Sequence record: PZ386971.1
Reading direction: 5' to 3' (one strand)
DNA from: a phage
DNA: 64,000 nucleotides
Position numbers and translations under genes: made by a program. Under the pieces are notes generated by a model. It searched no databases. It was not told the DNA's origin and was given only the letters and a program-made list of their open reading frames with translations. Below, one piece after another: positions 1 to 41,980 of this stretch; the first letter of the stretch is position 1, and every line of letters begins with the position of its first letter.

Positions 1-2211
1 ATGGCGTATCAGAAGCGTGATGTAGAATACGCCCCACTCAAGACGGGGTTTAAGACAGAAGACGTCAGACTGCGTATGGACCAAACGTTCATGCGCAAGC
101 CGTCTGTGCGCGCTCCTCGTGTGGAGTTGATGCTAACAGATGAGCAGGAATCGGAGTTCGTCGAGTGCGCGATGGACGCCCATTACTTCGCCGCCAACTA
201 CTACAAGATCACGACCATCGATAAAGGCTTCATCCTCTTTGACATGCACGATTACCAGAAGCAGTTGTTCCATGACTTCCAGGACTATCGATTCAATGCG
301 GTCGTCCAGGCTCGTCAGTCTGGGAAATGTGTAAAAGGTGACACGCTTGTCACAGTTTACGATACTCTCAGCCAAGAGCAGTTGCTCCTGACCATAGGGG
401 AGCTTCACAGCCGCTTCGAGGACGTCAACCACGCTGTGCCGCTGAATACCATTGGCAACCATGACAAGTTCGTGGACAGCCGCTTCGGCAAACGTTACTT
501 TGTGCAATCCGATAGTGGTTGGGTTCCGGTTATCGCAGCGCATAAGACGAAGAAATATGCGGAATTCGTTATTGTGACTGTTACTGGGCGGCGAATTAAC
601 GTGGCCGACGAACATATATTCTTCACTCCGGAAATGAAGGAGATATTTGCCAAAGACCTGAATTCTGGGTCATACATCATGACGTCAGAAGGTCCAGAAG
701 AAATCCGTGAGATTTGGCAGACTGGTGAGACGCATCACATGTATGACCTACAGGTGAAATCTAGTGATCAGCGCTACTACACCAACGGCTTCCTCAGCCA
801 CAACACGACAGTCGTGGCAGCGTTCCTGCTCTGGTATGCGATGTTCCACTCCGACAAAGAGATCGCAGTACTGGCGAACAAAGAGAAGCAGGCGATTGAA
901 ATCCTAGATCGTATTCGCAAAGCATATCAAGATTTGCCATTCTTCCTCCAACAGGGTTGTGAGAAGTTCGGTTCCACGCTGATCGAGTTCGAAAACGGAT
1001 CAAAGATCTACGCCTATGCGACATCTTCCGACTCCATCCGTGGTCGATCCGTATCGCTCCTGTATGTGGACGAAGTGGCGTTCATTGAAAACGACTTTGA
1101 ATTCTGGGAGTCTACATTCCCGGCGATTGCATCTGCAGAGACTTCACGTTGTATTCTGACCAGTACGCCGAAAGGTCAGCGCGGGTTGTTCTACGACATC
1201 GTCACCAAGGCGAACCCAGAACACCCACAATACAACGACTTCAAACTCACCGAGGTCCCATGGTATCGTGTTCCAACGTACACCAAAGATCCAGACTGGG
1301 AATCCAAACAAAGGGCGAAGCTGGGTGATGCACGTTTCGATCAAGAATTTGGCATTAAGTTCCGTGGTTCTGTGGGATCACTGATACCTGCCAAGTGTCT
1401 GGACAAGATGACCTCGAAGCTGTATCAGGAGCCGAACGAGTTCACCAAGATTTATCACGACTACGATCCTAAGCGCATCTATATGGGTATCGCAGATACA
1501 GGCAAGGGTGTCGAAGGGGATTATTCTGTGCTGACCATTATCGACATCACAGACTATCCTCACAAGATCGCAGCCAAGTATCGAAATAACACGATACCTC
1601 CAATGATGTACGCGTACACAATCGCCGATATGGGCGAGAAGTATGGAACGTGCCCGATGCTAGTCGAGACTAACAACGACGTGGGTGGTCAGGTGATCAC
1701 AATTCTATACCAGGAAATTGAATATCCCGAGATCATCTTCACTACAACAGATACCAAGGGCACAGGCAAGAGAATCGGTGGTCGCCGCCCTGAGCCTGGT
1801 ATCAATACCAACAAGAAGGTGCGCACAAACGGCTGTGCCAACCTGAAAGCCCTGATTGAACGTGAAATGCTGGTGATAGATGACCAGGACACGATAGATG
1901 AACTCAGTACATTCGTATGGACTGGAACAAGGTATGAAGCCGATGATGGTTGTCATGATGACTGTGTAATGCCCCTCGTGTTGTATGCATGGGCGGTGAA
2001 ACAAGAATGGTTTAGTGACCTCACCAACTCCAGTATCTCAGTCGACATGAGAGGACGGTTGTCTGCGATGGAAGAATCACAGATGCTACCATTTGGAGGT
2101 ATGATGTCGACGCCAGATCCTCACTCTGTGGAGAACATCCCAGGGTTCGGTGGAATTCAGGTTTATGACGACCGCTCTGGTATGTCTATGGAAGAATGGC
2201 TGAGACGGTGA
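1..2211 (+). CDS. 17: Terminase large subunit (T4 gp17-like), intein-containing
   Basis: 736-aa ORF; Walker A reads VVQARQSGK then TTVVAAF once residues 110-268 are removed, matching T4 gp17 LSRQLGKTTVVAIF; sits directly upstream of the sheath gene as in T4. Confidence 0.9.
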   Translation: MAYQKRDVEYAPLKTGFKTEDVRLRMDQTFMRKPSVRAPRVELMLTDEQESEFVECAMDAHYFAANYYKITTIDKGFILFDMHDYQKQLFHDFQDYRFNAVVQARQSGKCVKGDTLVTVYDTLSQEQLLLTIGELHSRFEDVNHAVPLNTIGNHDKFVDSRFGKRYFVQSDSGWVPVIAAHKTKKYAEFVIVTVTGRRINVADEHIFFTPEMKEIFAKDLNSGSYIMTSEGPEEIREIWQTGETHHMYDLQVKSSDQRYYTNGFLSHNTTVVAAFLLWYAMFHSDKEIAVLANKEKQAIEILDRIRKAYQDLPFFLQQGCEKFGSTLIEFENGSKIYAYATSSDSIRGRSVSLLYVDEVAFIENDFEFWESTFPAIASAETSRCILTSTPKGQRGLFYDIVTKANPEHPQYNDFKLTEVPWYRVPTYTKDPDWESKQRAKLGDARFDQEFGIKFRGSVGSLIPAKCLDKMTSKLYQEPNEFTKIYHDYDPKRIYMGIADTGKGVEGDYSVLTIIDITDYPHKIAAKYRNNTIPPMMYAYTIADMGEKYGTCPMLVETNNDVGGQVITILYQEIEYPEIIFTTTDTKGTGKRIGGRRPEPGINTNKKVRTNGCANLKALIEREMLVIDDQDTIDELSTFVWTGTRYEADDGCHDDCVMPLVLYAWAVKQEWFSDLTNSSISVDMRGRLSAMEESQMLPFGGMMSTPDPHSVENIPGFGGIQVYDDRSGMSMEEWLRR
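328..804 (+). mobile_element. Mini-intein (159 aa) inserted in the terminase P-loop
   Basis: Starts with Cys right after SGK (CVKGDTLV, block A-like); internal TGRRINVADEHIFFT (block B-like TxxH); ends YYTNGFLSHN followed by Thr (+1 nucleophile); too short for a homing-endonuclease domain. Confidence 0.75.
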
Positions 2212-2263: not shown

Positions 2264-4159
2264 ATGGCAACTCAAAGCTTCAGCGTTGCGCCGTCCGTAC
2301 AGTGGACTGAGCGTGATGCCACGCTTCAGACGTCCCCATCCGTTGTTGTTCAGGGTGCGGCTGTCGGCAAATTCCAATGGGGTGAGGCAGAACTCCCTGT
2401 GTTGGTCACTGGTGGTGAAACTGGTCTGGTGAAGAAATTCTTCAAGCCAAACGATGCAACTGCCACCGACTTCTTAGTGATTGCTGACTTCCTGTCTTAC
2501 AGCTCTGTTGCATGGGTGACCCGTGTGGTCGGTCCGGCGGCACGCAACGCTGTAACCAAAGGTCAGACTGCAATCCTTATCCGCAACAAATTAGACTTCG
2601 AAACTGCGTCCCCATCTGCGTCTATTACCTGGACAGGCCGCTATGCTGGCTCTCTGGGTAACGACATTGCTGTGAACATCTGTGACGCTGCGCTGTTCCC
2701 GACCTGGGAATTCCGTAACAACTTCGCATATGCTCCGCAGGATGGCGAGTACCATATCGCCATCGTTGACAAAGTAGGTCGCATCACCGACTCTTCTGGC
2801 GCTGTTAGTCAGGTTGATCGTATCTCTGTATCCGGTACTGCCACCGCTGCTGGTTCCATCTCTGTTGCTGGTGAAGCCGTGGCGTACACTGACGCTGACA
2901 CCCCGGCGACTCTGGCGACAAAGATCGGAACTGCGCTGACGTCTCTGTCTGAAGTATATTCTTCTGTTGTCGTGAAGTCCAACACCGTCACCGTCACTCA
3001 CAAAGCAATCGGTCCTCAGGCTGCGACTGCGATTGTTCCAGACGCGAATGGCCTGACTGCTACCGCTGCCGTCACCACTGTTGGTGCTTCCGGTACGATC
3101 ATCGAGAAGTATGAACTGGTTCAGACCGCTCAGGGTTCTAAGAAATCTGATGGATCCAATGCATACTTCAAAGACGTGATCAACGGCACCTCAAATTGGG
3201 TGTACACCTTCGCCACTACCCTGGCTGCTGGTGTCATTGAACTCGAAGGTGGTGTAGACGATTACACTGGGAACCGTGTTGCGGCTATCCAGGCACTGAA
3301 CAACGCCGAAGCGTATGATGCCAAGCCAGTGTTCGGTTTCTGTGAAGAACTGATTGAGCAGCAGGCACTGATCGACCTGTCCACCGAGCGTAAAGACACA
3401 GTGTCCTTCGTGTCTCCTCTTCGCGATACGGTCGTCGGAAACCGTGGCCGTGAGATGGATGATGTTGTGGCCTGGCGTGAAAGTCTTGTTCGCGACTCCT
3501 CCTACTTCTTCATGGATGACAACTGGGCGTATGTGTACGACAAGTACAACGACAAAATGCGTTGGATTCCGGCTTGTGGCGGCACCGCAGGTGTTTGGGC
3601 GCGCAGCATTGAAATCGCGGGTATCTACAAATCTCCGGCGTTCCACAACCGTGGTAAATACAACAACTATAATCGAATGGCATGGTCTGCGTCTTCTGAT
3701 GAGCGTGCTGTGCTGTATCGCAACCAGATCAACAGCATTGTCACCTTCTCCAACGAAGGCATCGTGTTGTACGGCGACAAGACTGGCCTGACCCGCCCAT
3801 CTGCGTTCGACCGCATCAACGTTCGTGGTCTGTTCATTATGGCAGAGCAGAACATCGCAGCCATCGCCAAATACTACCTTGGTGAGAACAACGATGCATT
3901 CACTCGTGGGTTGTTCAGCAACGCTGTCCGCCCATATATCCGCCAGTTGGCCAACATGGGCGCGATCTATGACGGGATGGTGAAGTGTGATGAGGACAAC
4001 AACACTGCGGAAGTTATCGCTGCCAACCAGATGGTTGCTGGTATCTGGCTGAAGCCCGAGTACAGCATAAATTGGGTGTATCTCGACTTCGCCGCCGTTC
4101 GCCCGGACATGGAATTCAGTGAGATCGAATCCGGTGGTGGTATCGTAGCCGCTTCTTAA
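2264..4159 (+). CDS. 18: Tail sheath protein (T4 gp18-like)
   Basis: 631 aa from ATG 2264 with AAGGAAT SD; N-terminal AAVGKFQWGEAELPV matches T4 gp18 ALAGKFQWGPAFQI; position after terminase; track ORF begins at an upstream in-frame TTG. Confidence 0.85.
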   Translation: MATQSFSVAPSVQWTERDATLQTSPSVVVQGAAVGKFQWGEAELPVLVTGGETGLVKKFFKPNDATATDFLVIADFLSYSSVAWVTRVVGPAARNAVTKGQTAILIRNKLDFETASPSASITWTGRYAGSLGNDIAVNICDAALFPTWEFRNNFAYAPQDGEYHIAIVDKVGRITDSSGAVSQVDRISVSGTATAAGSISVAGEAVAYTDADTPATLATKIGTALTSLSEVYSSVVVKSNTVTVTHKAIGPQAATAIVPDANGLTATAAVTTVGASGTIIEKYELVQTAQGSKKSDGSNAYFKDVINGTSNWVYTFATTLAAGVIELEGGVDDYTGNRVAAIQALNNAEAYDAKPVFGFCEELIEQQALIDLSTERKDTVSFVSPLRDTVVGNRGREMDDVVAWRESLVRDSSYFFMDDNWAYVYDKYNDKMRWIPACGGTAGVWARSIEIAGIYKSPAFHNRGKYNNYNRMAWSASSDERAVLYRNQINSIVTFSNEGIVLYGDKTGLTRPSAFDRINVRGLFIMAEQNIAAIAKYYLGENNDAFTRGLFSNAVRPYIRQLANMGAIYDGMVKCDEDNNTAEVIAANQMVAGIWLKPEYSINWVYLDFAAVRPDMEFSEIESGGGIVAAS

Positions 4160-4201
4160 TTTACTCCATGCCCTCTTCGGAGGGTACATTGAGGTATTGT
4201 T

Positions 4202-4504
4202 ATGAAAAGTTTTTCTCAATTTTTAGCAGAAGCAGGCCTAAAAGGTGACCTTCAGAAAGTTAAAGACTCCGTGATTGAATGGTTGGAAGACCAAGATGTA
4301 AGGCTCAAAAAGGGTGATATCGAAAATGGAGTATTTGGAGATTTCTTCCGCATAACCATTGATGATTTTGAATATACATATAATGGCAAAGAGATCAAAG
4401 TATTCGACCTGAAGAAAGATAAACAGGTTGTTAGCAAAGCTGCTGGAACTCGAGAAGCCCCAGGTGAACTCGGTAAATTGTTTAAGAAATACAGCAAAGT
4501 GTGA
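4202..4504 (+). CDS. Hypothetical small protein (100 aa)
   Basis: ORF with GAGGT SD, followed by a terminator hairpin; lies in the sheath-tube insertion. Confidence 0.5.
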   Translation: MKSFSQFLAEAGLKGDLQKVKDSVIEWLEDQDVRLKKGDIENGVFGDFFRITIDDFEYTYNGKEIKVFDLKKDKQVVSKAAGTREAPGELGKLFKKYSKV

Positions 4505-4508
4505 CAAG

Positions 4509-4530
4509 ACCCCGCTTCGGCGGGGTTTTA
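4509..4530 (+). terminator. Rho-independent terminator (ccccgcTTCGgcgggg + T-run)
   Basis: Perfect 6-bp GC stem with TTCG loop then TTTT; same hairpin sequence recurs at 12721. Confidence 0.6.
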
Positions 4531-4559
4531 AATTTTTCTAGATTATTTTATTGAATTAC

Positions 4560-4587
4560 TTTACTTCTTCAATAACTCACGTATAAT
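4560..4587 (+). promoter_or_regulatory. Early sigma70-type promoter (-35 TTTACT, 16 bp, -10 TATAAT), cassette A copy 1
   Basis: TTTACTtcttcaataactcacgTATAAT then conserved leader cataagcag..caacttgaaa and AGGAACTATATCATG. Confidence 0.55.
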
Positions 4588-4635
4588 TCTAAACATAAGC
4601 AGTACGACACCAACTTGAAACGAAGGAACTATATC

Positions 4636-4992
4636 ATGACCAAGACCGAAATTAACGCTATCCTGAAAGAAATCGGCCTCTGCAACCTGAAACGCCGCGT
4701 CAATCCTTACCAGCCCGCAAAGCCAGTACGCGACAGCCAGGGAAAGATGATAAAAGGGATCTACTGTGCAGATGTTGGCCCAATGACTGTGACCAGTCCA
4801 CACATTGACAGATTTAACGCTATTGTTGAGGAGTTTTGTGGTAAGGTTCTGGGTGAACTAGCTAATGATTTATGCTCCCCAGATACCAAAGTTGTAGCTT
4901 TCGGGAGCCACCTCGTCACATTCCACCTCACCAGCTTCCGTGCCCACGGTGATTATCATGTGTATTATGCTCAGGTTAGCATTCGCAAATAG
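4636..4992 (+). CDS. Hypothetical protein (118 aa)
   Basis: ATG at 4636 preceded by AGGAACTATATC; the track's MKRRNYIM N-terminus is an artefact of an in-frame TTG in the leader. Confidence 0.5.
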   Translation: MTKTEINAILKEIGLCNLKRRVNPYQPAKPVRDSQGKMIKGIYCADVGPMTVTSPHIDRFNAIVEEFCGKVLGELANDLCSPDTKVVAFGSHLVTFHLTSFRAHGDYHVYYAQVSIRK

Positions 4993-4998
4993 CAGTTT

Positions 4999-5022
4999 AC
5001 CCCGCTGAGGCGGGGTTTAGTT
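4999..5022. terminator. Bidirectional terminator hairpin between convergent genes
   Basis: accccgcTGAGgcggggt flanked by T/A runs, between the + ORF ending 4992 and the - gene ending 5017. Confidence 0.5.
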
Positions 5023-6801
5023 TTCCAGTTCATACCGGATAAGACCACACCCCCAGATACGCCCCAACCCGGCTTCCACCGACAGCATATCCTCTGTTTT
5101 GCCTTCTATATCGTATCCAAGTTTAAGGAATTTCTCTTTCCTGAAATTGAATTTGTGTATACGTAAGCTATAGTCTGGTGTCACATATTTGTAATCAGGG
5201 GGAAGGATTTCCTTTTCAACAAATCCGTTATTCAGGTAAACATTTTTCAGACGACTGACAACACAACGATCACCAAAAGAATATACTGTCTCACCCCGAT
5301 GTCGAGCGATATAATATTTCAGCAAGCGTGAGAATGCGCCATGGCAATTGTTAGAAGCAAATCTCACCAATTCAATACCATGCACTCGTTTGGTAAACAA
5401 CATCACCGCCTGGATATTCCCAGTTTTGTCTACAAGGTGTATATAATCTGTCGCCACCACACCACCTTGTATATGGAATCGGTCGAGAAAGTCCTTGGAC
5501 GTCCTATAGGAGCCTTCCAAAATGGTATGTTGGCGAGCGTATGACAATGGTTTCCCTATCCCCAATTTTGCTTTTAGGAGTGATTTAACCACTTCCTGTT
5601 TGTCACGCCACTCATCTTCCCAGATATGGATTAATTGAATACCCTGGGATTCACAGTGCATAGTCTTTTCAAGATGGTAGTCTTTGTATCGATGTTTCTC
5701 CGAATGCCAATACAACCCATTAAATTCTATTGCCAACTTATGTTCTGGGCAGTATATGTCTATCTGGCGTGTGGTCGCCCTCCCGTCGAACATTTTACCT
5801 CTGAGGACGGAGAAATTACCAGATTCATAAACGACACCCAATGAATCCAGGTATGAACATATTTCTATTTCTGGCTGTGTTTGGCTTTGGCTGCTGGGGT
5901 ATGTGAAAGAGTTCCTATATTCTTCAGAAGAGAAATAGTGAGGTACGCCGTATTTTTCTTTTGAAATGATCCTGGTATTGGCCTGGCTTCTATCCCATAT
6001 AGCCTTTACCTTCAACGGATAATCAACCCCATATTTTAAGACGCATGTTTTCTTTCTCTTTTCTATAATGGAATTGAGGAACATTGGATGATCCACACCA
6101 TAGATCTTCCTCCAAGTCTCAATCACCCTTTCCCTCACTTCTGGCATTTTCATGACGTGTGATACGCCATAGCGTTCCATGACAGAAGCAGCCACTCTGT
6201 CCTTTATAACATCAGACTTCATAGGGTGGTCGACCCCATATTTCTTAAGGGCAGTTTCCCGTGACTTTTGTTTTACTTCTTCCAGTTGGAATATGTTGGC
6301 TACGCCATATTTCTCTGTTATGGCGTTTTCTAGGTTGGCCCGTTCTGAGCCTCCCACCTTCATTGATTCTCGTTGGCATTCTTCGGAACAAAACTTTTTG
6401 TATCTGGGCGGTTGGGCTTCCATTTCTAAGCCGACGTCAGCACCGCAAGTGGCACACTGCGACTTCGGAATATCGTACAGCCAAGCAGTTATCGCTTGTG
6501 GTTCTTCTAATAGGTCGTTGTGTGACACCACGTATCCAACAACATCAACCCCAGTATGGGCCGTGAGTAGGGGATGAGAGATAAGTTTGTAGTTCAACGA
6601 ACCATCTTTCTTCCTGAGTTTACTATCAACCCAAGAGCGGCATTCGGTTTCGGTCGTCGGGATGTCATCCAACAAACCCGGATTGCGTTTCATCGTTCCC
6701 AGCATGAATGATTTGCATTCGTCACTACAATACAACGCAGCCTTCCTGGTTGGGGTGAACGGTTTGTGGCAGCATAAACAATTTTTATCGGGGAATGGCA
6801 T
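5017..6801 (-). CDS. Homing-endonuclease-like protein: N-terminal Cys cluster, six tandem KYGV..HP repeats, Vsr/DUF559-like PD-(D/E)XK nuclease domain
   Basis: 594 aa from ATG 6801 (GAGGAT SD); N-terminal CLCCH..C..C; repeats KYGVANI / KYGVDHPM / RYGVSHVM / IYGVDHPM / KYGVDYPL / KYGVPHYF; IDIYCPEHKLAIEFNGLYWHSE...IHIWEDEW resembles the Vsr/DUF559 fold; antisense insertion between conserved sheath and tube genes. Confidence 0.55.
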   Translation of the reverse strand: MPFPDKNCLCCHKPFTPTRKAALYCSDECKSFMLGTMKRNPGLLDDIPTTETECRSWVDSKLRKKDGSLNYKLISHPLLTAHTGVDVVGYVVSHNDLLEEPQAITAWLYDIPKSQCATCGADVGLEMEAQPPRYKKFCSEECQRESMKVGGSERANLENAITEKYGVANIFQLEEVKQKSRETALKKYGVDHPMKSDVIKDRVAASVMERYGVSHVMKMPEVRERVIETWRKIYGVDHPMFLNSIIEKRKKTCVLKYGVDYPLKVKAIWDRSQANTRIISKEKYGVPHYFSSEEYRNSFTYPSSQSQTQPEIEICSYLDSLGVVYESGNFSVLRGKMFDGRATTRQIDIYCPEHKLAIEFNGLYWHSEKHRYKDYHLEKTMHCESQGIQLIHIWEDEWRDKQEVVKSLLKAKLGIGKPLSYARQHTILEGSYRTSKDFLDRFHIQGGVVATDYIHLVDKTGNIQAVMLFTKRVHGIELVRFASNNCHGAFSRLLKYYIARHRGETVYSFGDRCVVSRLKNVYLNNGFVEKEILPPDYKYVTPDYSLRIHKFNFRKEKFLKLGYDIEGKTEDMLSVEAGLGRIWGCGLIRYELEN

Positions 6802-6882
6802 AATAAATATCCTCACTTTGGAGTATTTTAACCCCCATTTATTTCAAAACTAAATATTTACACTATTCAGAGGAGAACGACC

Positions 6883-7416
6883 ATGGCTACAGTTAATGAA
6901 TTCAGAGCAGCTATGTCACGCGGGGGTGGCGTTCAGCGCCAACACCGCTGGCGTGTGACTGTTAACTTCCCTTCCTTCGTGGCTGGAAGCGATACCATCC
7001 GTGATGTTTCGCTGTTGGCGGTGACCACAAATACCCCAACAGGCCAGCTCGGGGAGATACTCGTCCCATGGGGTGGTCGTGAACTTCCATTCCCAGGTGA
7101 CCGTCGTTTTGAGGCTCTGCCTGTAACGTTTATCAACGTTGTGGACAACGCCCCGTACAACGCATTCGAAGTCTGGCAGCAGTACATCAACGGCAGCAAC
7201 AACAACCGTGCGTCTGCTAACCCAGATGATTATTTCCGTGATGTAATCATGGAACTGCTGGATGCGAATGACAATGTCACCAAGACCTGGACCCTTCAGG
7301 GCGCCTGGCCTCAGAACCTCGGTCAGCTGGAACTGGACATGTCTGCAATGGACTCTTATACTCAGTTCACTGTTGACCTGCGTTACTTCCAGGCCATTTC
7401 AGACAAGTCTCTCTAA
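6883..7416 (+). CDS. 19: Tail tube protein (T4 gp19-like)
   Basis: 177 aa; C-terminal TWTLQGAWPQNLGQLELDMSAMDSYTQFTVDLRYFQ parallels T4 gp19 KGLWPTNVGELQLDWDSNNEIQTFEVTLALDYWE. Confidence 0.85.
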   Translation: MATVNEFRAAMSRGGGVQRQHRWRVTVNFPSFVAGSDTIRDVSLLAVTTNTPTGQLGEILVPWGGRELPFPGDRRFEALPVTFINVVDNAPYNAFEVWQQYINGSNNNRASANPDDYFRDVIMELLDANDNVTKTWTLQGAWPQNLGQLELDMSAMDSYTQFTVDLRYFQAISDKSL

Positions 7417-7482: not shown

Positions 7483-9177
7483 ATGGCATTCGGTAATGGT
7501 GCATTCGGAAATGGGTTCTTCGGCTTGTTCGGCAGAGGCGGCAAAGTAGAAGCGCCGATTGATACCGACAAGATGGTCACGAACCAAGAAGAGAAGTTGC
7601 TTTCAAAAGCGACTGTTGTTGCGCTGGACGATTCTCAGGATGGTTCGATCATCCTCCAGGGCGGCGCGAACACATTCAATTTCGTTGGTGTTGAGAATGA
7701 GTTGCTCAACGTCAAACAGCTGGTCGAAGAGTACCAGTCTATGGCTCAGCAGCCTGAGATTCGTAAGGCTGTGGATATCATTGTCAACGACATCGTCACC
7801 TGTGAAGAGGACGAGACTCCTGTAACCATCAACCTGGAAAAGGTAGATGGCATCACAAACGAAGTCAAAGAGAAGATCACTGAAGCATTCAAAGAGATCA
7901 TGCATCTCCTTGACTTTGACAACACGGCGTATCAGAAGATCCGCAAATGGTATATTGAAGGCCGTCAGGCATTCCACGTTGTAGTGGACCCGAAGAACAA
8001 GAAAGCGGGTATCGCCAAACTCATCATGATGGACTCACGCTGTATCCGCCCAGTGTACATCGTTCAAAAGGCGATGCGCGACGGTATCGAAGTCATCAAT
8101 GACGTAAAACTTCAATACTACTACAACCCGAACTACAACCGCAACCAATTCACTGGCCAGTCCGGTACGTCTCAGAACTTCCAACCGTCACAGCAAGAGC
8201 TGGTGTTCGACGATGAGAGCATCGTGTATCTGGACAGTGGTGAAGAGCCTCTGGCGAATGGGGTTGTACCAAGCCTGCTGAACCCAGCTATCCGTCCCCT
8301 GAACAACCTTGTTACAACTGAAGATGCAACTGTGATCTATGCGATCACACGTGCTCCTGAGAAGCGAGCGTTCTATCTCGACGTGGGTACGCTGGGTAAG
8401 AAGTCGGCCGAAGAATACATGCAAGCCATGATGGGCAAATTCAAGAACCGTCTGGCGTATGATCGCACCACTGGTAAGGTGGCTGGTAACACTCATTTGA
8501 TGGGTATCGCTGAGGACTACTGGCTGCCACGTCGTGAAGGACAGAACGCAACCGAGATCTCCAACGTAGGCGGTGGCGATCAACTGGGTCAAATGGATCA
8601 TGTGGTATACTTCCGCGAGAAGCTCTACGAGGCTCTGATGATCCCTAAGAGCCGCCTGCAAGAGGAAGGTTCCATCAACATCGGTGGTTCCAATCTTGCT
8701 GAAATCACACAGGAAGAATTGCGCTTCAACAAGTTCTGTGCGAGCCTGCGCCGTCGTTATTCTTCTGGTATCTTCCTGGAACTTCTGCGCCGTCAGCTGA
8801 TATTGAAAGGCATTACAGATCAGGCTGACTGGAATGAGAAGATCAAGCCGTTCGTCAAGTTCGAATTCACTTCTGACAGCTTCATCCGTGAACAACAAGA
8901 GAACGAAATCTTGTCACAGCGTATGGCGGCTCTCGGTCAGATCGAACCATATATCGGCACTCTCTTCTCTATCGATTTTGCTCAACGCAATTTGCTGCGT
9001 ATGTCCGATGAAGACATCAAAGACCAGCAAGAGAAGATCGCGAAAGAGAAGAAAGAAGGCAAATACCCTGAAGTGCAGGCAGATGAGTCCGGCGGCTTCG
9101 GCAGCGGGGAAGTCAGTCCACTGAAATTCAGACCTAACGTCATCCCAGCGACTAACCCTCCTGGTGGTGAAGAATAA
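7483..9177 (+). CDS. 20: Portal protein (T4 gp20-like)
   Basis: 564 aa; located between tube and prohead protease as in T4; size close to gp20. Confidence 0.8.
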   Translation: MAFGNGAFGNGFFGLFGRGGKVEAPIDTDKMVTNQEEKLLSKATVVALDDSQDGSIILQGGANTFNFVGVENELLNVKQLVEEYQSMAQQPEIRKAVDIIVNDIVTCEEDETPVTINLEKVDGITNEVKEKITEAFKEIMHLLDFDNTAYQKIRKWYIEGRQAFHVVVDPKNKKAGIAKLIMMDSRCIRPVYIVQKAMRDGIEVINDVKLQYYYNPNYNRNQFTGQSGTSQNFQPSQQELVFDDESIVYLDSGEEPLANGVVPSLLNPAIRPLNNLVTTEDATVIYAITRAPEKRAFYLDVGTLGKKSAEEYMQAMMGKFKNRLAYDRTTGKVAGNTHLMGIAEDYWLPRREGQNATEISNVGGGDQLGQMDHVVYFREKLYEALMIPKSRLQEEGSINIGGSNLAEITQEELRFNKFCASLRRRYSSGIFLELLRRQLILKGITDQADWNEKIKPFVKFEFTSDSFIREQQENEILSQRMAALGQIEPYIGTLFSIDFAQRNLLRMSDEDIKDQQEKIAKEKKEGKYPEVQADESGGFGSGEVSPLKFRPNVIPATNPPGGEE

Positions 9178-12720: not shown

Positions 12721-12742
12721 ACCCCGCTTCGGCGGGGTTTTT
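12721..12742 (+). terminator. Rho-independent terminator after the major capsid gene
   Basis: accccgcTTCGgcggggttttt, identical stem-loop to the one at 4509. Confidence 0.65.
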
Positions 12743-16240: not shown

Positions 16241-16648
16241 TCAGTGCTCCCGCGCCGGAAGAACTCCCACTGGTTCGATGCCATCCAACAGCAGGGAGTT
16301 CACACCCACATTACTCAGTCTGATCAAGATCGTTCCCCCTGGGTTAACTTCAAAGATACTCATCCCATTTCCAACCGCGTCGTTGTTAACGAACACACCC
16401 TGAGTTGCGATTCGTACTGGTTTATCTGAGTCATTCATGATCTTGAACGTCACGATTATATCCGATGTTGTACCCAGTCGTCCAACCATGCGTTGCTTCA
16501 GCTTGGCATAGAATGATGGATTAAAAGTGATAATGATGCTGTTGTTCTGAGAGTAATAAATACTGGCTGAAAGGTATGGAATCTTCCCTTCATCGCCACG
16601 CCGCAGGAGAGGAATTGTGGTCTTCCAGTATGGCTTGAGGGTGCTCAT
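16241..16648 (-). CDS. Hypothetical protein (136 aa), convergent with the upstream + gene
   Basis: C-terminal 136 aa of the minus ORF read as a well-behaved beta-rich protein (MSTLKPYWKTT...); the upstream part of that ORF is W/C/R-rich antisense-like junk. Confidence 0.4.
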   Translation of the reverse strand: MSTLKPYWKTTIPLLRRGDEGKIPYLSASIYYSQNNSIIITFNPSFYAKLKQRMVGRLGTTSDIIVTFKIMNDSDKPVRIATQGVFVNNDAVGNGMSIFEVNPGGTILIRLSNVGVNSLLLDGIEPVGVLPAREH

Positions 16649-16917
16649 GTTCTCATCAAAGCAACCTAAAGGTACGAGCTTCTGGAAGGGCTGGAACTCT
16701 TGCACGATGATGTCCAGCATACCCTTGTTACAAGTGGGAACGCTGGCCGACAACATCACAGGTACGGTGCGCACTTCCGGGGTCCAGAGTTCGGAAACAG
16801 AAATTATTGGCGTGACAAAGATACGACAGCTCGTAAACAAGAGCATCGAGCATGCCAACAACAATCTACTGATCCCGCGCATCAGGGTCACAAAATATCT
16901 CCACAGCAAAGGTGCTA

Positions 16918-17420
16918 TTATGTCCAACGTACAATTCAAGAACGAAAACCCTAATTTCGCGGCGTCCGATAAGTGGCGTCTGACTATCGGAGACCTTGTA
17001 CTCCTAACCCGTAACATCCACGACTTCAGTATACCAGGGGTGTACTCCGAAGGCATCGATGGTCCGTCGCCAGGAGACGTACTGGTTTCTATTCCTTCAG
17101 AACGTTTAACCTATGATCCCGTCGTATTTACTTTCGTTATAGACGAGGACTGGAAATCATGGTTACAGATCCACCAATGGATTACCAGCAACGTCGGCAA
17201 GGATTTGCCTGTCAGCAAGGACATTACCATTGAATTGCTGGATAACCTCAACCGACCGATTGGCCTCACTCTAGTGCTGGAGGAAGCCCGCCCGACTGCT
17301 TTGGACAACGTACTGGTGGACGTAGACGCGGCTGTACCTCAGCTGGTGACGACAGTGACCTTCAAGTTCCAACAGCTGGTTCCACTATCTGGTGGGAAGG
17401 CGATTGATTCTAATCAGTGA
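16918..17420 (+). CDS. Hypothetical protein (167 aa; N-terminus may extend to about 16707)
   Basis: ATG 16918 with AAAGGTG SD; protein-like sequence to the stop at 17420. Confidence 0.5.
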
Positions 17421-32547: not shown

Positions 32548-32572
32548 TCCCCAACAAACGTTGGGGATTTTT
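32548..32572 (+). terminator. Terminator hairpin tccccaacAAAgttgggga + T-run (copy 1)
   Basis: Identical 26-bp element recurs at 32904. Confidence 0.55.
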
Positions 32573-32583
32573 ACTTTTAGGGG

Positions 32584-32612
32584 TTTACTTCTATAATGTA
32601 AATGCGTATTAT
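32584..32612 (+). promoter_or_regulatory. Early promoter (-35 TTTACT, 17 bp, -10 TATTAT)
   Basis: gggGTTTACTtctataatgtaaatgcgTATTAT; same -35 family as cassette A. Confidence 0.45.
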
Positions 32613-32661
32613 TGAATTCATAGAGCGGGGCGTTCCTGTTCATTGAAAGAAGGTATACATT

Positions 32662-32903: not shown

Positions 32904-32928
32904 TCCCCAACAAACGTTGGGGATTTTT
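32904..32928 (+). terminator. Terminator hairpin tccccaacAAAgttgggga + T-run (copy 2)
   Basis: Exact repeat of the element at 32548. Confidence 0.55.
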
Positions 32929-32940
32929 AACTTTTAGGGG

Positions 32941-32969
32941 TTTACTTCCTTTAAGGAATGTCCTATTAT
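32941..32969 (+). promoter_or_regulatory. Early promoter (-35 TTTACT, 17 bp, -10 TATTAT)
   Basis: GTTTACTtcctttaaggaatgtccTATTAT. Confidence 0.45.
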
Positions 32970-33020
32970 TCAATAACTGGCGAACGATGGGTTCACCGGG
33001 TTGAAAGGTAAGATTATATC

Positions 33021-38924: not shown

Positions 38925-40643
38925 GTGACAGCATTCAACCAATATACCAAGGCGCTTGACGGCGTCGGACCAGTCAGCATAGACCGCATCAAGTCTCTTG
39001 CCACTGAGTTCTTCCCGTATGACACCGCCAACCCCGGCCAGATGGAATGCATCGTTGAAGCCATTGATGCCCTTGTGAATAAGAAATTCAAACACGTGAT
39101 CATCGAGGCTCCGACTGGTGTAGGTAAATCCCTCATCGGCACTACCATCCATAATGTGCTTCGCCATTTGGTTCTTGAGCACAACCCGTATGGTCAGTTC
39201 CGCACGTCTATCACGACGCCGACCAAAGGTTTACAGGATCAGTATGCAGCAGAGAAAGCCGTGGCGATAGACATCCTGAAGGGCAAGAAGAACTACCGTT
39301 GCCACATCAGTCCCGACCTATACTACAACGCCATTCAGTGCCGTATGGCATGCCGTGATGGCCACTGTAGTAAGAATCGTTGCCCATATGTTCAGGCGCG
39401 TCGACAGTGGACCGACGTCTCCTCCCTGCGCTGCACCAACGCCGCCATGATGGTGGAGATGTGTACGACGATTTGTATGAAGCCGGAAAACCGTGCCGAT
39501 ATGCTGATCCTTGACGAGTGTCATAAGATGCCCTCTACGCTCCTAGAGCATACTATCATGGAATACAACATAAAGGCTGTGGAAGGGTTGCTTACGATCC
39601 CCGAGGGAGTGCCTATCGTGGAGACCATCAAGGATATCATCATCCGCACAGAGAACTATGAATTGGGCAAGCTGTATTCCCTGTCTGGTGAGATGCATGC
39701 GATATTTGATGAACTACACGGCAAGGTTGAAGCCCTGTTGGAAACTCTTGAAGAACTGGTAGAGGATGAGCGCCTGACTGAAGCCCAGGTGATGAAGCTG
39801 TCTGATATTATTGATAATCTTCACAACCTCAGTGACTACTGCGGTATCATGGGGCAGACCAACGCCAGCACTTTCATCGTACAGGAGAAGGACAAGGGTA
39901 TGATTCAGTTCAAGCCTGTCATCGCCTCTGATGTATCCCAGTTCGGTCTGTTCCGCAAGGGTGACTACCACGTTCACATGTCGGCGACCATCTGCGGGAT
40001 TGACTCGTACGCCCGGTCACTGGGTATCCGCGAGGGTGAGTACCACAAGATACAGATCGGCAACCCTATCCCGATTGAGAACCGGAAAGTCAACTACATG
40101 CCCATCATGAAGATGACAGCGAACATGGGTGACTACGAGATGAAGAAGCTGGCTGAATACGTGGATGAAATTATCGCGTTCCACCCTGGGCAGTCTGGCA
40201 TCATTCACACAGTCAGTTATGACCGCGCCCTGGCTCTACAAAAGTTCAGTAAGTACCGGAATATGATTCACGTTCCTCGTACTCGTAAGGCTCTGATGGA
40301 CATCATGGAAAACGCGTTCAGGACGAAGACGCCTTGTGTCATCGCCAGTCCGGCCATGGAAGAGGGGTATGACTTCAAAGGCGATTATAGTCGATTTCAG
40401 ATCTTGATCAAAGTGCCATACGATTACCTTGGTGATCCTCTGGTGGCCCACGTCAACAGTGTGGACCCATCGGCGTACTTCAGGATGGCGGTACTGCGTA
40501 TCGTTCAGATGTGTGGGCGTTCGGTCAGGGGCGTGAATGACTGGGCTGCGACGTACATCCTTGATTCTTCTTTTGAATCACTGATGATGCGCAACCCAGA
40601 GTTCTTCCCCGCTTGGTTCACTGATGCCGTGTTTGAGGTTTAG
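38925..40643 (+). CDS. DinG/XPD-like Fe-S SF2 helicase
   Basis: 572 aa; APTGVGKS Walker A; four-Cys cluster CHISPDLYYNAIQCRMACRDGHCSKNRC; DECH box. Confidence 0.75.
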   Translation: MTAFNQYTKALDGVGPVSIDRIKSLATEFFPYDTANPGQMECIVEAIDALVNKKFKHVIIEAPTGVGKSLIGTTIHNVLRHLVLEHNPYGQFRTSITTPTKGLQDQYAAEKAVAIDILKGKKNYRCHISPDLYYNAIQCRMACRDGHCSKNRCPYVQARRQWTDVSSLRCTNAAMMVEMCTTICMKPENRADMLILDECHKMPSTLLEHTIMEYNIKAVEGLLTIPEGVPIVETIKDIIIRTENYELGKLYSLSGEMHAIFDELHGKVEALLETLEELVEDERLTEAQVMKLSDIIDNLHNLSDYCGIMGQTNASTFIVQEKDKGMIQFKPVIASDVSQFGLFRKGDYHVHMSATICGIDSYARSLGIREGEYHKIQIGNPIPIENRKVNYMPIMKMTANMGDYEMKKLAEYVDEIIAFHPGQSGIIHTVSYDRALALQKFSKYRNMIHVPRTRKALMDIMENAFRTKTPCVIASPAMEEGYDFKGDYSRFQILIKVPYDYLGDPLVAHVNSVDPSAYFRMAVLRIVQMCGRSVRGVNDWAATYILDSSFESLMMRNPEFFPAWFTDAVFEV

Positions 40644-41407
40644 TAACCCGCAACGAAGGACAGATGGCACTTGACATTCGGTTCCAACGACGTCACAGAA
40701 ACCGTCATATTGTCCGTATCTTGGCTGAAGTCAATGGTGGCGAGAGGTTTGGTCTGAATATGGTTGTAAACACTGTAGATCAGATCCTCGCCACGATACC
40801 CTACCTTCCCGTCGGTGTCTTGCCAATGACCCAGTGTTTCATCGTAGACATGCACTCTGAACTCGATCATATGGAAGAGTGCCTTGGGGATGTCCTTGAG
40901 TACGCTGGTGCCAACCACGGGAATCTCTATGCTGGAATCATTGGAGTTCCCTTCATAGACCGAAGCCCATGCAAAGGTAGGATCACCCCCAGCAACAGGG
41001 GTTCGCTTCCAGTATTGGAATTCTGGGTTGCCTGAAGCGTTCTTCTGAAGTAGAATGACCTCACCACCTTTGAAGTTCGAGGTATCGATGTCGCCTCGCT
41101 GAAGTTCATCTGCTGGAGATCCAATAAATTTCCAACCTTCGCGATCCAGTAAAGACTTATAATAGTCGGTGAACACGTTGCTGTCTTCTGCATCGTTGAT
41201 GGCATCTTTGAGACCTTGGCCTGTCACCATCTCGTTGAGCTTCAACCACATGTTCTTGACAGCAGACGCTGCTGCGACTTGTCCAGCAGTCCCACCTGCA
41301 GCATAATCATAGATGATATCTTCTGACTTGATAGCATCATAGATAGAGAGGAGCAATTGCTCAATCTGCGGGGCGGTGAGACTGAAACGATATGCGCGGG
41401 GTGCCAT
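40640..41407 (-). CDS. Hypothetical protein (255 aa)
   Basis: Minus-strand ORF from ATG with GAGGAA SD; the track's upstream extension (52 aa) looks like junk. Confidence 0.5.
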   Translation of the reverse strand: MAPRAYRFSLTAPQIEQLLLSIYDAIKSEDIIYDYAAGGTAGQVAAASAVKNMWLKLNEMVTGQGLKDAINDAEDSNVFTDYYKSLLDREGWKFIGSPADELQRGDIDTSNFKGGEVILLQKNASGNPEFQYWKRTPVAGGDPTFAWASVYEGNSNDSSIEIPVVGTSVLKDIPKALFHMIEFRVHVYDETLGHWQDTDGKVGYRGEDLIYSVYNHIQTKPLATIDFSQDTDNMTVSVTSLEPNVKCHLSFVAGY

Positions 41408-41452
41408 AGTTTCATTCCTCTTTCTATAAAACCAGTTTGGGATATTTATATC

Positions 41453-41980
41453 ATGATAGAAATTTATTCTGACGGGGGTTCTAACCCGAAGACCAACCAG
41501 GCCGCAGGCTGGGCATTTGTCATCAGGCCAATAACGGGTATGCAATGGAAGGTGTTCTTCGGTCATCTACCTCCCCCGTCCACTAACAATATCGCCGAGT
41601 TGTTGGGTGTGACCAACGCATTGAAGCTACTGTGGGCATTCTCAGGAAAGGGTGAGCGCAGAATACCAAAGGCAACAATTTGGTCTGACAGCCAATATGC
41701 CATCAAGAGTGTCACCGAATGGCGAGCGAAGTGGGAGTATCAGGGTTTCCCAGAAAAGAACGTTGAACTCATCAAAGATCTGTTCAGAATCTATGATCTC
41801 GTTTGTTCAATTTGTGATGTTGAACTAAAATGGGTTAAGGGTCATGCGGGGCACGAAGGCAACGAACTTGCCGATGACTGGGCCACAGCAGCCAAAAACG
41901 ACAGCAACTTCCTGATTGAGAATGACAAGATCTCAGTGAAGAAGGTTGTTGGATCTTTTGATGAATTTATCGGTATCTGA
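41453..41980 (+). CDS. rnhA: Ribonuclease HI
   Basis: YSDGGS...GWAFVI, TNNIAELLGV, WSDSQYAI, VKGHAGHEGNELADDWA match the RNase H type 1 catalytic motifs. Confidence 0.85.
   Translation: MIEIYSDGGSNPKTNQAAGWAFVIRPITGMQWKVFFGHLPPPSTNNIAELLGVTNALKLLWAFSGKGERRIPKATIWSDSQYAIKSVTEWRAKWEYQGFPEKNVELIKDLFRIYDLVCSICDVELKWVKGHAGHEGNELADDWATAAKNDSNFLIENDKISVKKVVGSFDEFIGI

Follow-up and report, generated by a model that had tools for sequence, protein, structure and literature searches.

The closest described counterpart of the locus reported here is F-LimVIII of the Dickeya phage LIMEstone1, which Adriaenssens et al. (2012, PMC3296691) reported as a Hef-like free-standing homing endonuclease encoded on the opposite strand between sheath and tube, giving the tube gene as its 'downstream gene'. 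Later papers on Dickeya phages describe such endonucleases as variably present, deleted or frameshifted. Here, we analyzed a 64,000-nucleotide (nt) stretch of phage DNA (sequence record PZ386971.1; the whole stretch is called the window below), in which a spacer of 2,723 nt (positions 4160-6882) separates the sheath gene from the tube gene and carries an antisense gene of the same kind together with two small plus-strand open reading frames (ORFs), ORF1 and ORF2. Our results make it probable that free-standing homing endonuclease genes use the sheath-tube spacer of Ackermannviridae as a landing site, and that three units, each acquired separately, are stacked and nested in the spacer of the present phage.

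Related systems are known from other phages. I-Bth0305I is the prototype of the Vsr-like EDxHD homing endonucleases, with E170, D196, N208, H213 and D222 as its EDxHD residues, and phage Hef-type enzymes were placed in this group by Taylor et al. (PMC3239194). The seg and mob genes of T4 are characterized by distant cleavage, co-conversion of flanking markers and embedded promoters (Edgell et al. 2010, PMC2988022). Among them, segD is placed in antisense orientation between the late genes 23 and 24, with terminators on either side, while promoters of gene 32 are embedded in segG, an arrangement that favors retention of the endonuclease (PMC2988022). In other phage groups, islands of homing endonuclease genes ('HEG islands') with T5orf172 and IPA-HNH endonucleases have been reported at the boundaries of genetic exchange (Barth et al. 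2023, PMC10448857); we found no description of the Ackermannviridae sheath-tube site in that study.

The locus in the window resembles F-LimVIII in its antisense orientation, its sheath-tube site and a right end with the palindrome TAAATATTTA, which is annotated in LIMEstone1 as putative late promoters. In LIMEstone1, the cassette stands alone directly past the sheath terminator and is followed by a hairpin (hairpin A), a GIY-YIG remnant and the ancestral leader, whereas in the window ORF1 and ORF2 come before it and its right end runs straight into the tube start codon. With Hef of the T4-related phage U5 and with I-Bth0305I (PDB 3r3p; PMC3239194), the window protein shares a Vsr-like core with an E...D...N...H pattern and a place in a phage mobile element; the likeness to Hef comes by family placement and by the I-Bth0305I alignment. 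However, I-Bth0305I is intron-encoded, has 266 amino acids (aa), uses NUMOD/HTH DNA-binding modules and cuts beside its own insertion site, whereas the window protein is free-standing, has 594 aa and contains 'KYGV' repeats, Cys-rich motifs and an extra C-terminal domain, with the fifth motif residue unconserved.

As in the 'intronless homing' of the T4 seg and mob genes (PMC2988022), an intergenic endonuclease gene sits beside an essential conserved gene and flanking sequence appears to be co-converted, but the families differ, being GIY-YIG and HNH in T4 and Vsr-like here. Unlike the promoters embedded in segG, the promoter-like motif of the window lies in the non-coding end of the cassette, outside the ORF; the site also holds a stack of two unrelated cargo ORFs. 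The likeness to the HEG islands is that phages which otherwise diverge more have exchanged a block marked by an endonuclease gene beside structural genes (PMC10448857). Every mechanistic element has a T4 precedent, and no new mechanism or kind of system is called for. What this study adds is the anatomy of the three nested mobile units, a cross-genus co-conversion tract in the tube gene, the replacement of a leader and promoter, and a terminator link to the post-capsid site. The region represents a clean natural example of the life cycle of a homing endonuclease in an essential late operon, since close relatives between them display invasion, the hitch-hiking of cargo, capture of the promoter and ribosome-binding site of the downstream gene, and decay.

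The sheath-tube spacer is a variable site occupied by endonuclease genes

The phage is a ViI-like coliphage of the Ackermannviridae (subfamily Aglimvirinae), so that the 'T4-like' context assumed in the initial annotation does not apply in the strict sense. Its first 10 kb, which were the part compared, are ~98% identical over 73-100% of the query to the Escherichia phages vB_EcoM-ZQ1 (ZQ1), A221, PC3/PH4, LHE287, RPN242 and AV101. The identity falls to 86-88% for Shigella phage Ag3 and the LIMEstone group of Dickeya phages, and further to 81-83% for Kuttervirus and Taipeivirus phages. The sheath gene (2264-4159, stop codon TAA at 4157-4159; Pfam Phage_sheath_1C, phrog_23) and the tube gene (6883-7416, ATG at 6883; Pfam Phage_T4_gp19, phrog_45) both lie on the plus strand. 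As the initial annotation had described, about 2.7 kb separate them, and the two small plus-strand ORFs, a terminator with an early-type promoter and the antisense endonuclease-like gene were all found at, or within a few bases of, the positions it gave. The GC content is 43.1% in the spacer and 37.6% in ORF1, and 53.4% and 52.8% in the sheath and tube genes.

Sheath and tube are complete separate ORFs that are adjacent in Ag3, which rules out insertion of a group I intron or an intein at the spacer. No group I intron or structured RNA was detected in the spacer, where Rfam at E ≤ 1 gave only sub-threshold matches on the terminator hairpins, and no tRNA was found there.

To analyze the distribution of the occupants, we compared 31 sheath-tube loci from GenBank phage records and IMG/VR, a set that is phylogenetically non-independent. 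About 11 architectures are present, ranging from an empty spacer to 2,725 nt. The spacer is empty in Ag3, P46FS4 and Bue1 (77-78 nt). It contains a single small plus-strand GIY-YIG gene in many Kuttervirus and Taipeivirus phages (~545-558 nt), a single larger GIY-YIG gene in RPN242 (plus strand), barely and Menlow (~784-816 nt), ORF1 with a small GIY-YIG gene in Magnus (899 nt), one minus-strand GIY-YIG gene in locus L030 (900 nt), two plus-strand GIY-YIG genes in loci L015, L020, L028 and L033 (~1,230-1,261 nt), and a minus-strand followed by a plus-strand GIY-YIG gene in the Det7 type (1,372 nt). ORF1, ORF2 and a decayed Hef-like gene are found in LHE287 and locus L013 (1,250-1,254 nt), a Hef-like gene with a GIY-YIG remnant in the LIMEstone group (2,107 nt), ORF2 with a Hef-like gene in Mutine, maane and A221 (~2,380 nt), and the complete set of ORF1, ORF2 and Hef-like gene in the window and ZQ1 (2,723-2,725 nt). 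The same length classes recurred in a 60-row sample of the 394 matching records.

Endonuclease genes occupy the site in 28 of the 31 loci, including the two with a decayed Hef gene, and free-standing (Seg-like) GIY-YIG endonucleases are the commonest occupants. The Hef-like gene is sporadic at its fixed site: the LIMEstone and Mutine groups carry it, and it is absent from RPN242, Ag3 and most Kuttervirus and Taipeivirus phages. None of the three window ORFs has a Pfam or PHROG match to a GIY-YIG domain. A tblastn search with four GIY-YIG proteins taken from relatives gave matches in other loci and none in ZQ1, which has the arrangement of the window (the window itself was not searched in this way). 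In LIMEstone1 (6000-6210 of its locus, L006), the segment between the Hef cassette and the tube gene still has hairpin A, together with a remnant (~35 aa) of a GIY-YIG gene of the RPN242 type, which is evidence for successive occupancy by different endonuclease families. Together, the site is a real but ordinary selfish-DNA hotspot for free-standing homing endonucleases, a well-known class. It is also a site where Ackermannviridae phages for therapy or biocontrol tolerate 0-2.7 kb of foreign DNA.

One alternative is that the 2.7 kb are an old, vertically inherited part of the structural module, with a gene order fixed across the lineage. The arrangement is indeed identical in ZQ1 at 97% identity, and the Hef-like gene takes the same position in Dickeya, Salmonella and Escherichia phages. 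However, the spacers of other relatives are empty or differently filled, and genomes ~98% identical to the window differ module by module: A221 lacks ORF1, LHE287 and L013 have the endonuclease deleted, and RPN242 carries a GIY-YIG gene instead. An ancient fixed order is refuted by this variety of architectures and by such module-wise differences. It is further contradicted by the GC content of the spacer (43% against 53% in the flanks) and by ORF1, which is 97% identical in amino acids to the copy at the same site in Klebsiella phage Magnus, although the adjacent sheath end is only ~83% identical. We consider this alternative hardly conceivable. The 'hyperplastic insertion' of the initial annotation is apt in that a plastic site has been filled with mobile DNA, but what fills it is more than a single insertion: at least three units that differ in history are stacked and nested there.

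The antisense gene encodes a predicted Hef-like endonuclease

The antisense gene (5017-6801, minus strand; 594 aa) was listed as an ORF at 5017-6816 starting from a GTG, and its conserved start is the ATG at 6801, with GTGAGGA upstream (ribosome-binding site, 6810-6816). Over its full length, the protein matches phrog_3339 'homing endonuclease' (E = 2e-191), and it also exceeds the gathering score of Pfam DUF7487 (E = 1e-25); matches to Pfam DUF559, MTES_1575 and NCBIfam Vsr are all sub-threshold. It has two Cys-rich motifs in its N-terminal part, six ~23-aa 'KYGV' repeats corresponding to DUF7487 and a C-terminal domain that is conserved, while the nuclease core occupies about aa 305-410.

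I-Bth0305I is the sole solved relative found by sequence (PDB 3r3p, E = 0.0035). Across 32 homologues, down to 26% identity, E311, D348, E359, H366, H376, K379, E395 and D396 are invariant, and N361 is conserved at a level of at least 90%. The D-N-H spacing equals that of D196-N208-H213 in I-Bth0305I. The family comprises more than 3,300 proteins at E ≤ 1e-5 among the candidates scored, including F-LimIII, F-LimVII and F-LimX of LIMEstone1. The gene is 89% identical in nucleotides and 90% in amino acids to F-LimVIII. Judged by its sequence, the antisense protein is the orthologue of F-LimVIII and a predicted free-standing homing endonuclease of the Hef-like (Vsr-like, EDxHD) type, and it offers a target for mapping the specificity of endonucleases that combine DUF7487 with a Vsr-like core.

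The ORF is intact in the window, ZQ1, A221, LIMEstone1 and Mutine. In LHE287 (4994-5409 of its locus, L004), it carries a premature stop and a 1.46-kb internal deletion at an AGTT microhomology, corresponding to window positions 5130-6591, and L013 (IMG/VR UViG_3300045988_107072) contains a second decayed copy. LHE287 appears to show the decay stage of the homing cycle. No paralogues of the three spacer proteins were found elsewhere in the window.

A tube allele travels with the endonuclease cassette

The first ~165 nt of the tube gene (6883-7047, plus strand) are 95-99% identical to the window in every locus with a Hef-like gene or its remnant. These loci span three genera and include LIMEstone1 (Limestonevirus) as well as Mutine and maane (Kuttervirus, a different subfamily). 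In all 21 Hef-less loci except RPN242, the identity of the same segment is 73-82%, and the differences are mostly synonymous. Past nt 165, LIMEstone1 and Mutine drop to 83-86% identity to the window, and Mutine returns to a Kuttervirus-like sequence (88-93% identical to Det7). No comparable tract was found on the sheath side. An asymmetric and sharply bounded tract is the expected product of double-strand-break repair with co-conversion, a process established for the seg and mob genes of T4 (PMC2988022), and tube nt 1-165 can be read as the co-conversion footprint of the Hef-like cassette. The position of the tract points to a likely cleavage site in or near the 5' region of the tube gene.

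We then propose a model for the assembly of the locus. In a mixed infection, the enzyme would cut an allele that lacks the endonuclease, within the 5' part of its tube gene or close to it, and repair from the endonuclease-carrying genome would bring in the cassette along with the initial ~165 nt of the tube gene. The ORF2 unit would be a self-contained cassette with a sigma70 promoter that was acquired separately, while ORF1 would ride on the late transcript of the sheath gene. Both ORFs have probably moved by recombination through near-identical terminator hairpins, and would then have hitch-hiked in the conversion tract driven by the endonuclease.

The units could instead have piled up passively in a permissive site, by illegitimate or terminator-mediated recombination, with the endonuclease as an inert passenger. 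Such accretion would fit the short homologies at the junctions, namely CCATG at 4166-4170 and 6881-6885, AGTT at the LHE287 deletion and the near-identical terminators, and it would also fit ORF1 and ORF2, which have clearly moved between two sites, each past a terminator. An inert passenger is, however, at odds with an ORF that has stayed intact with invariant catalytic-type residues in five lineages, and with the presence of endonuclease genes in nearly all surveyed loci. The sharp bounds and mostly synonymous differences of the tube 5' tract across three genera are likewise those to be expected of break-induced gene conversion. Passive accretion alone is in our view unlikely, and we favor homing by the Hef-like endonuclease.

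Sequence exchange at the locus is not confined to this tract. Tube nt 166-534 (7048-7416) are 91-94% identical to Taipeivirus (Klebsiella) phages and 82-87% identical to Ag3, which indicates that the tube gene is mosaic beyond its Hef-linked 5' part. At the 3' end of the sheath gene, a patch of 142 nt (3989-4130) shows 24 differences to ZQ1, A221 and LHE287, of which 21 are synonymous, in a background of 98-99% identity. The patch is partly like the alleles of RPN242 and LIMEstone1; the best phage-database matches for a donor reach ~90%, and an exact 47-nt scan of IMG/VR gave no match. It is probably a gene-conversion patch beside the endonuclease hotspot, and is perhaps linked to a GIY-YIG target site. 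A role as discriminator of the Hef target was rejected, because the Hef-bearing ZQ1 and A221 share there the allele of the empty-site Ag3.

The right end of the cassette replaces the tube leader

The ancestral spacer, as seen in Ag3, runs from the sheath stop through hairpin A and CTAATTAGAATTGTGTAACTCTTTTTGGAGAATCTATA to the tube ATG. Hairpin A (UGCCCUC-UUCG-GAGGGUA; 4169-4186, plus strand; -13.5 kcal/mol, z = -2.7) lies just 3' of the sheath stop and has no T-run. It is found 3' of the sheath stop also in RPN242, Magnus, ZQ1 and LHE287 besides the empty site of Ag3, and is the ancestral post-sheath hairpin. Since the Ag3 spacer contains no late-promoter-like motif, the ancestral tube gene was presumably co-transcribed with the sheath gene, from the CACTAAATA site that lies at 2213-2221 in the window.

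The ancestral leader is gone in the window, ZQ1, A221, LHE287 and Mutine, where the cassette end ...AAAACTAAATATTTACACTATTCAGAGGAGAACGACC (also given as ...CTAAATATTTACACTATTCAGAGGAGAACGACC) runs directly up to the tube ATG. LIMEstone1 has this cassette end too, and there an ATG, hairpin A, the GIY-YIG remnant and the ancestral leader come after it. This arrangement marks the end of the cassette and shows that a further deletion gave rise to the window-type junction.

The right end (6802-6882) contains the palindrome TAAATATTTA at 6851-6860, with CTAAATA on the plus strand (6850-6856) and TAAATA on the minus strand, followed by the tube ribosome-binding site GAGGAG (6870-6875, plus strand). 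The LIMEstone1 record describes TAAATA as a putative late -10 element on both strands of this palindrome. CTAAATA occurs eight times in the window, each time on the plus (coding) strand and typically 30-60 nt ahead of a structural gene, and the extended form CACTAAATA is present in four copies against 0.12 expected. The cassette has swapped the native leader of the tube gene for a late-promoter-like motif and a ribosome-binding site of its own.

Such a swap is what one would look for if the element were domesticated, that is, kept mainly for tube expression through its right-end promoter and ribosome-binding site, or for a marker-exclusion advantage of the nuclease, and not as a purely selfish element. 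LHE287 and L013 have lost the endonuclease ORF and kept 6802-6882 intact, and the logic of retention is the same as for the gene 32 promoters inside T4 segG (PMC2988022). However, these observations are compatible with selfish homing and do not exclude it, the right-end promoter is putative, and RPN242-type relatives express the tube gene with the ancestral leader. We regard domestication as the main reason for retention as very unlikely, and continue with selfish homing as the preferred reading.

ORF1 and ORF2 are predicted mobile cargo genes

ORF1 (4202-4504, plus strand; 100 aa) has a GAGG ribosome-binding site 42 nt past the sheath stop and no promoter of its own here, and is therefore probably co-transcribed with the sheath gene. 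It gave no match in Pfam, PHROG, NCBIfam or PADLOC and is present in only five phage genomes among those sequenced. In SKML-39 and CAU_YEP3, where it is 76% identical, it lies directly 3' of the major capsid gene.

ORF2 (4636-4992, plus strand; 118 aa) was listed from a TTG at 4615; its conserved start is the ATG at 4636, according to the annotation in relatives and to phrog_13016, which aligns over positions 1-118. The match to phrog_13016 has E = 1e-42, and ORF2 is present in 42 of 50,697 phage records. It occupies the sheath-tube site in ZQ1, A221, PC3, PH4, LHE287, Mutine, maane and KE31. In Taipeivirus phages (55% aa identity), its place is immediately behind the terminator of the major capsid gene, and T4-like phages carry distant copies.

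AlphaFold models of ORF1 and ORF2 were of moderate confidence, with pLDDT values of 73 and 69, and comparison with BFVD returned only uncharacterized viral proteins for both, with no informative fold match for ORF2. Homology searches of large databases retrieved only five and four relatives for the two proteins, none with a name, and PADLOC, NCBIfam and Pfam gave no defense or anti-defense assignment for either. The reading frames and many residues are conserved among homologues of 53-82% identity, which identifies ORF1 and ORF2 as real genes. Both genes are also mobile.

The ORF2 cassette is composed of terminator B, a leader with a predicted promoter, ORF2 and hairpin C. Terminator B (AAGACCCCGCTTCGGCGGGGTTTT with a T-run; stem 4506-4529, T-run to 4539, plus strand; -17.3 kcal/mol, z = -4.0) closes the ORF1 unit on its 3' side and bounds the ORF2 unit on its 5' side. 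In A221, Mutine, LIMEstone1 and Det7, its hairpin stands immediately after the sheath stop. The promoter is of the sigma70 type, TTTACT-16-TATAAT (-35 at 4560-4565, -10 at 4582-4587, plus strand), matches 10 of 12 consensus positions, and forms with the conserved leader and the translation-initiation region a block at 4551-4635 (plus strand). Hairpin C (4999-5016; -13.3 and -13.8 kcal/mol) separates ORF2 from the endonuclease gene, which runs toward it; read on the plus strand, it resembles a terminator with a TTTAGTTTT tail, while on the minus strand it forms a hairpin that lacks a T-run. With its predicted promoter and terminator, its patchy spread and its alternative locations, the cassette corresponds to a moron-like autonomous accessory cassette.

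Terminator-like sites number 10, compared with 3.5 ± 1.8 in shuffled sequences, while the 10 generic promoter matches (6.8 ± 2.2 in shuffles) are not significant alone. The ORF2 promoter belongs to a family, CTTTACTTCTTCAATA-N7-8-TATA(A/C)T, with four copies in the window, the others lying near 14.04, 48.39 and 62.13 kb; the CTTTACTTCTTCAATA blocks usually stand just past a GC-rich hairpin. The ORF2 promoter block has hardly changed in two phages whose neighboring coding DNA is only ~72% identical, Klebsiella phage Magnus and Salmonella phage Mutine. A conserved promoter family in diverged coding surroundings indicates that the ORF2 promoter is more than a chance match to the consensus.

Nine genes, with or without an early-type promoter, share a ~25-nt translation-initiation region, TTGAAAnnAAGGAACTATATCATGAC (ATGs at 4636, 13298, 14090, 33320, 33879, 48440, 48738, 62203 and 62454), which could be a common translational control or processing site. 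A 55-nt direct repeat (32563-32617 and 32920-32974; 76% identical) contains a GGGGTTTACTTCTATAAT-like promoter sequence and represents a further pair of promoter-type copies.

The terminators also link the spacer to a second site. Positions 4509-4529 within terminator B are identical at 21 of 21 nt to 12721-12741, the terminator after the major capsid gene (ACCCCGCTTCGGCGGGGTTTT). ORF1 or ORF2 homologues lie directly 3' of the major capsid terminator in SKML-39, CAU_YEP3 and Magnus, and in Magnus a whole cassette of terminator, promoter, leader, ORF2 and terminator stands directly after the major capsid gene. The shared 21 nt suggest terminator-to-terminator recombination as a route between the post-sheath and post-capsid sites. 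We tentatively extend this to a broader possibility, which is rather doubtful at present: the near-identical terminators would act as portable homology for hops of ORF1 and ORF2 from one of these sites to the other, breaks introduced at the sheath-tube junction by the resident homing endonucleases would pump this cargo across genera, and a cassette that controls both transcription and translation initiation of the tube gene could not be cleanly lost. If true, the hotspot would be an endonuclease-powered exchange platform for small genes, possibly for host takeover or anti-defense.

The layout may limit transcriptional conflict

The arrangement of the spacer suggests that the transcriptional collision inferred in the initial annotation would be largely pre-empted, by terminators, by temporal separation and by the placement of the ORF2 unit between convergent late units. 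The late sheath-ORF1 transcript would stop at terminator B. ORF2 would be an early unit read by the host RNA polymerase (sigma70), ending at hairpin C, which would separate it from the endonuclease gene, and would serve as a buffer between the two convergent late units. The endonuclease gene would be transcribed late and leftward from the mirror-image TAAATA of the palindrome, while the CTAAATA at 6850-6856 would restart transcription of the tube gene, so that tube and portal are read late and rightward. T4 segD is a precedent for an antisense endonuclease gene set between terminators in a late structural cluster (PMC2988022). Our literature searches found no transcriptome or promoter mapping for Ackermannviridae.

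Terminator B, with its T-run, and not hairpin A, is present in 16 of 16 loci whose first post-sheath unit is antisense or promoter-bearing. A rule by which hairpin A stands before a plus-strand gene and terminator B otherwise is not universal, as terminator B precedes the small plus-strand GIY-YIG gene in six loci.

Several observations weigh against homing and against this transcription layout. First, the fifth EDxHD position (D374, present in the window) is not conserved across the 32-homologue family; the invariant E395 and D396 may substitute for it. The Hef-like nuclease could also be inactive. Second, RPN242, a phage of the same species with a GIY-YIG gene and no Hef-like gene, has the Hef-linked tube 5' allele (98.8% identity). 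The linkage between allele and Hef is thus not absolute, and within the species the allele is not discriminating. Third, a promoter restart is favored by CTAAATA, which all 12 loci with a minus-strand endonuclease gene carry between it and the plus-strand gene that follows, compared with 5 of 19 plus-only loci, but this contrast comes down to about five independent architectures among related loci. Fourth, the candidate promoter on the minus strand is GTAAATA, and not the CTAAATA or CACTAAATA found upstream of structural genes. Finally, the hairpins of terminator B and hairpin C lack T-runs on the minus strand, so that antisense read-through is possible, and endonuclease transcripts may run antisense into ORF2, ORF1 and the sheath gene.

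Flanking genes and other features of the window

The sheath and tube genes are flanked by the genes for the terminase large subunit (1-2211) and the portal (7483-9177), both on the plus strand. Two more antisense ORFs interrupt the otherwise plus-strand window, at 16241-17056 and 40640-41566 (minus strand); they match phrog_3832 and phrog_3833 and are not endonuclease-like. The terminase gene contains a mini-intein of 159 aa (CVKGDT...FLSHN|T, aa 110-268; window 328-804), which interrupts the ATPase domain. Its match to Pfam Intein_splicing falls just under the cut-off, the same intein is annotated in the Magnus record, and the length of 2,211 nt of the terminase gene is kept in all relatives.

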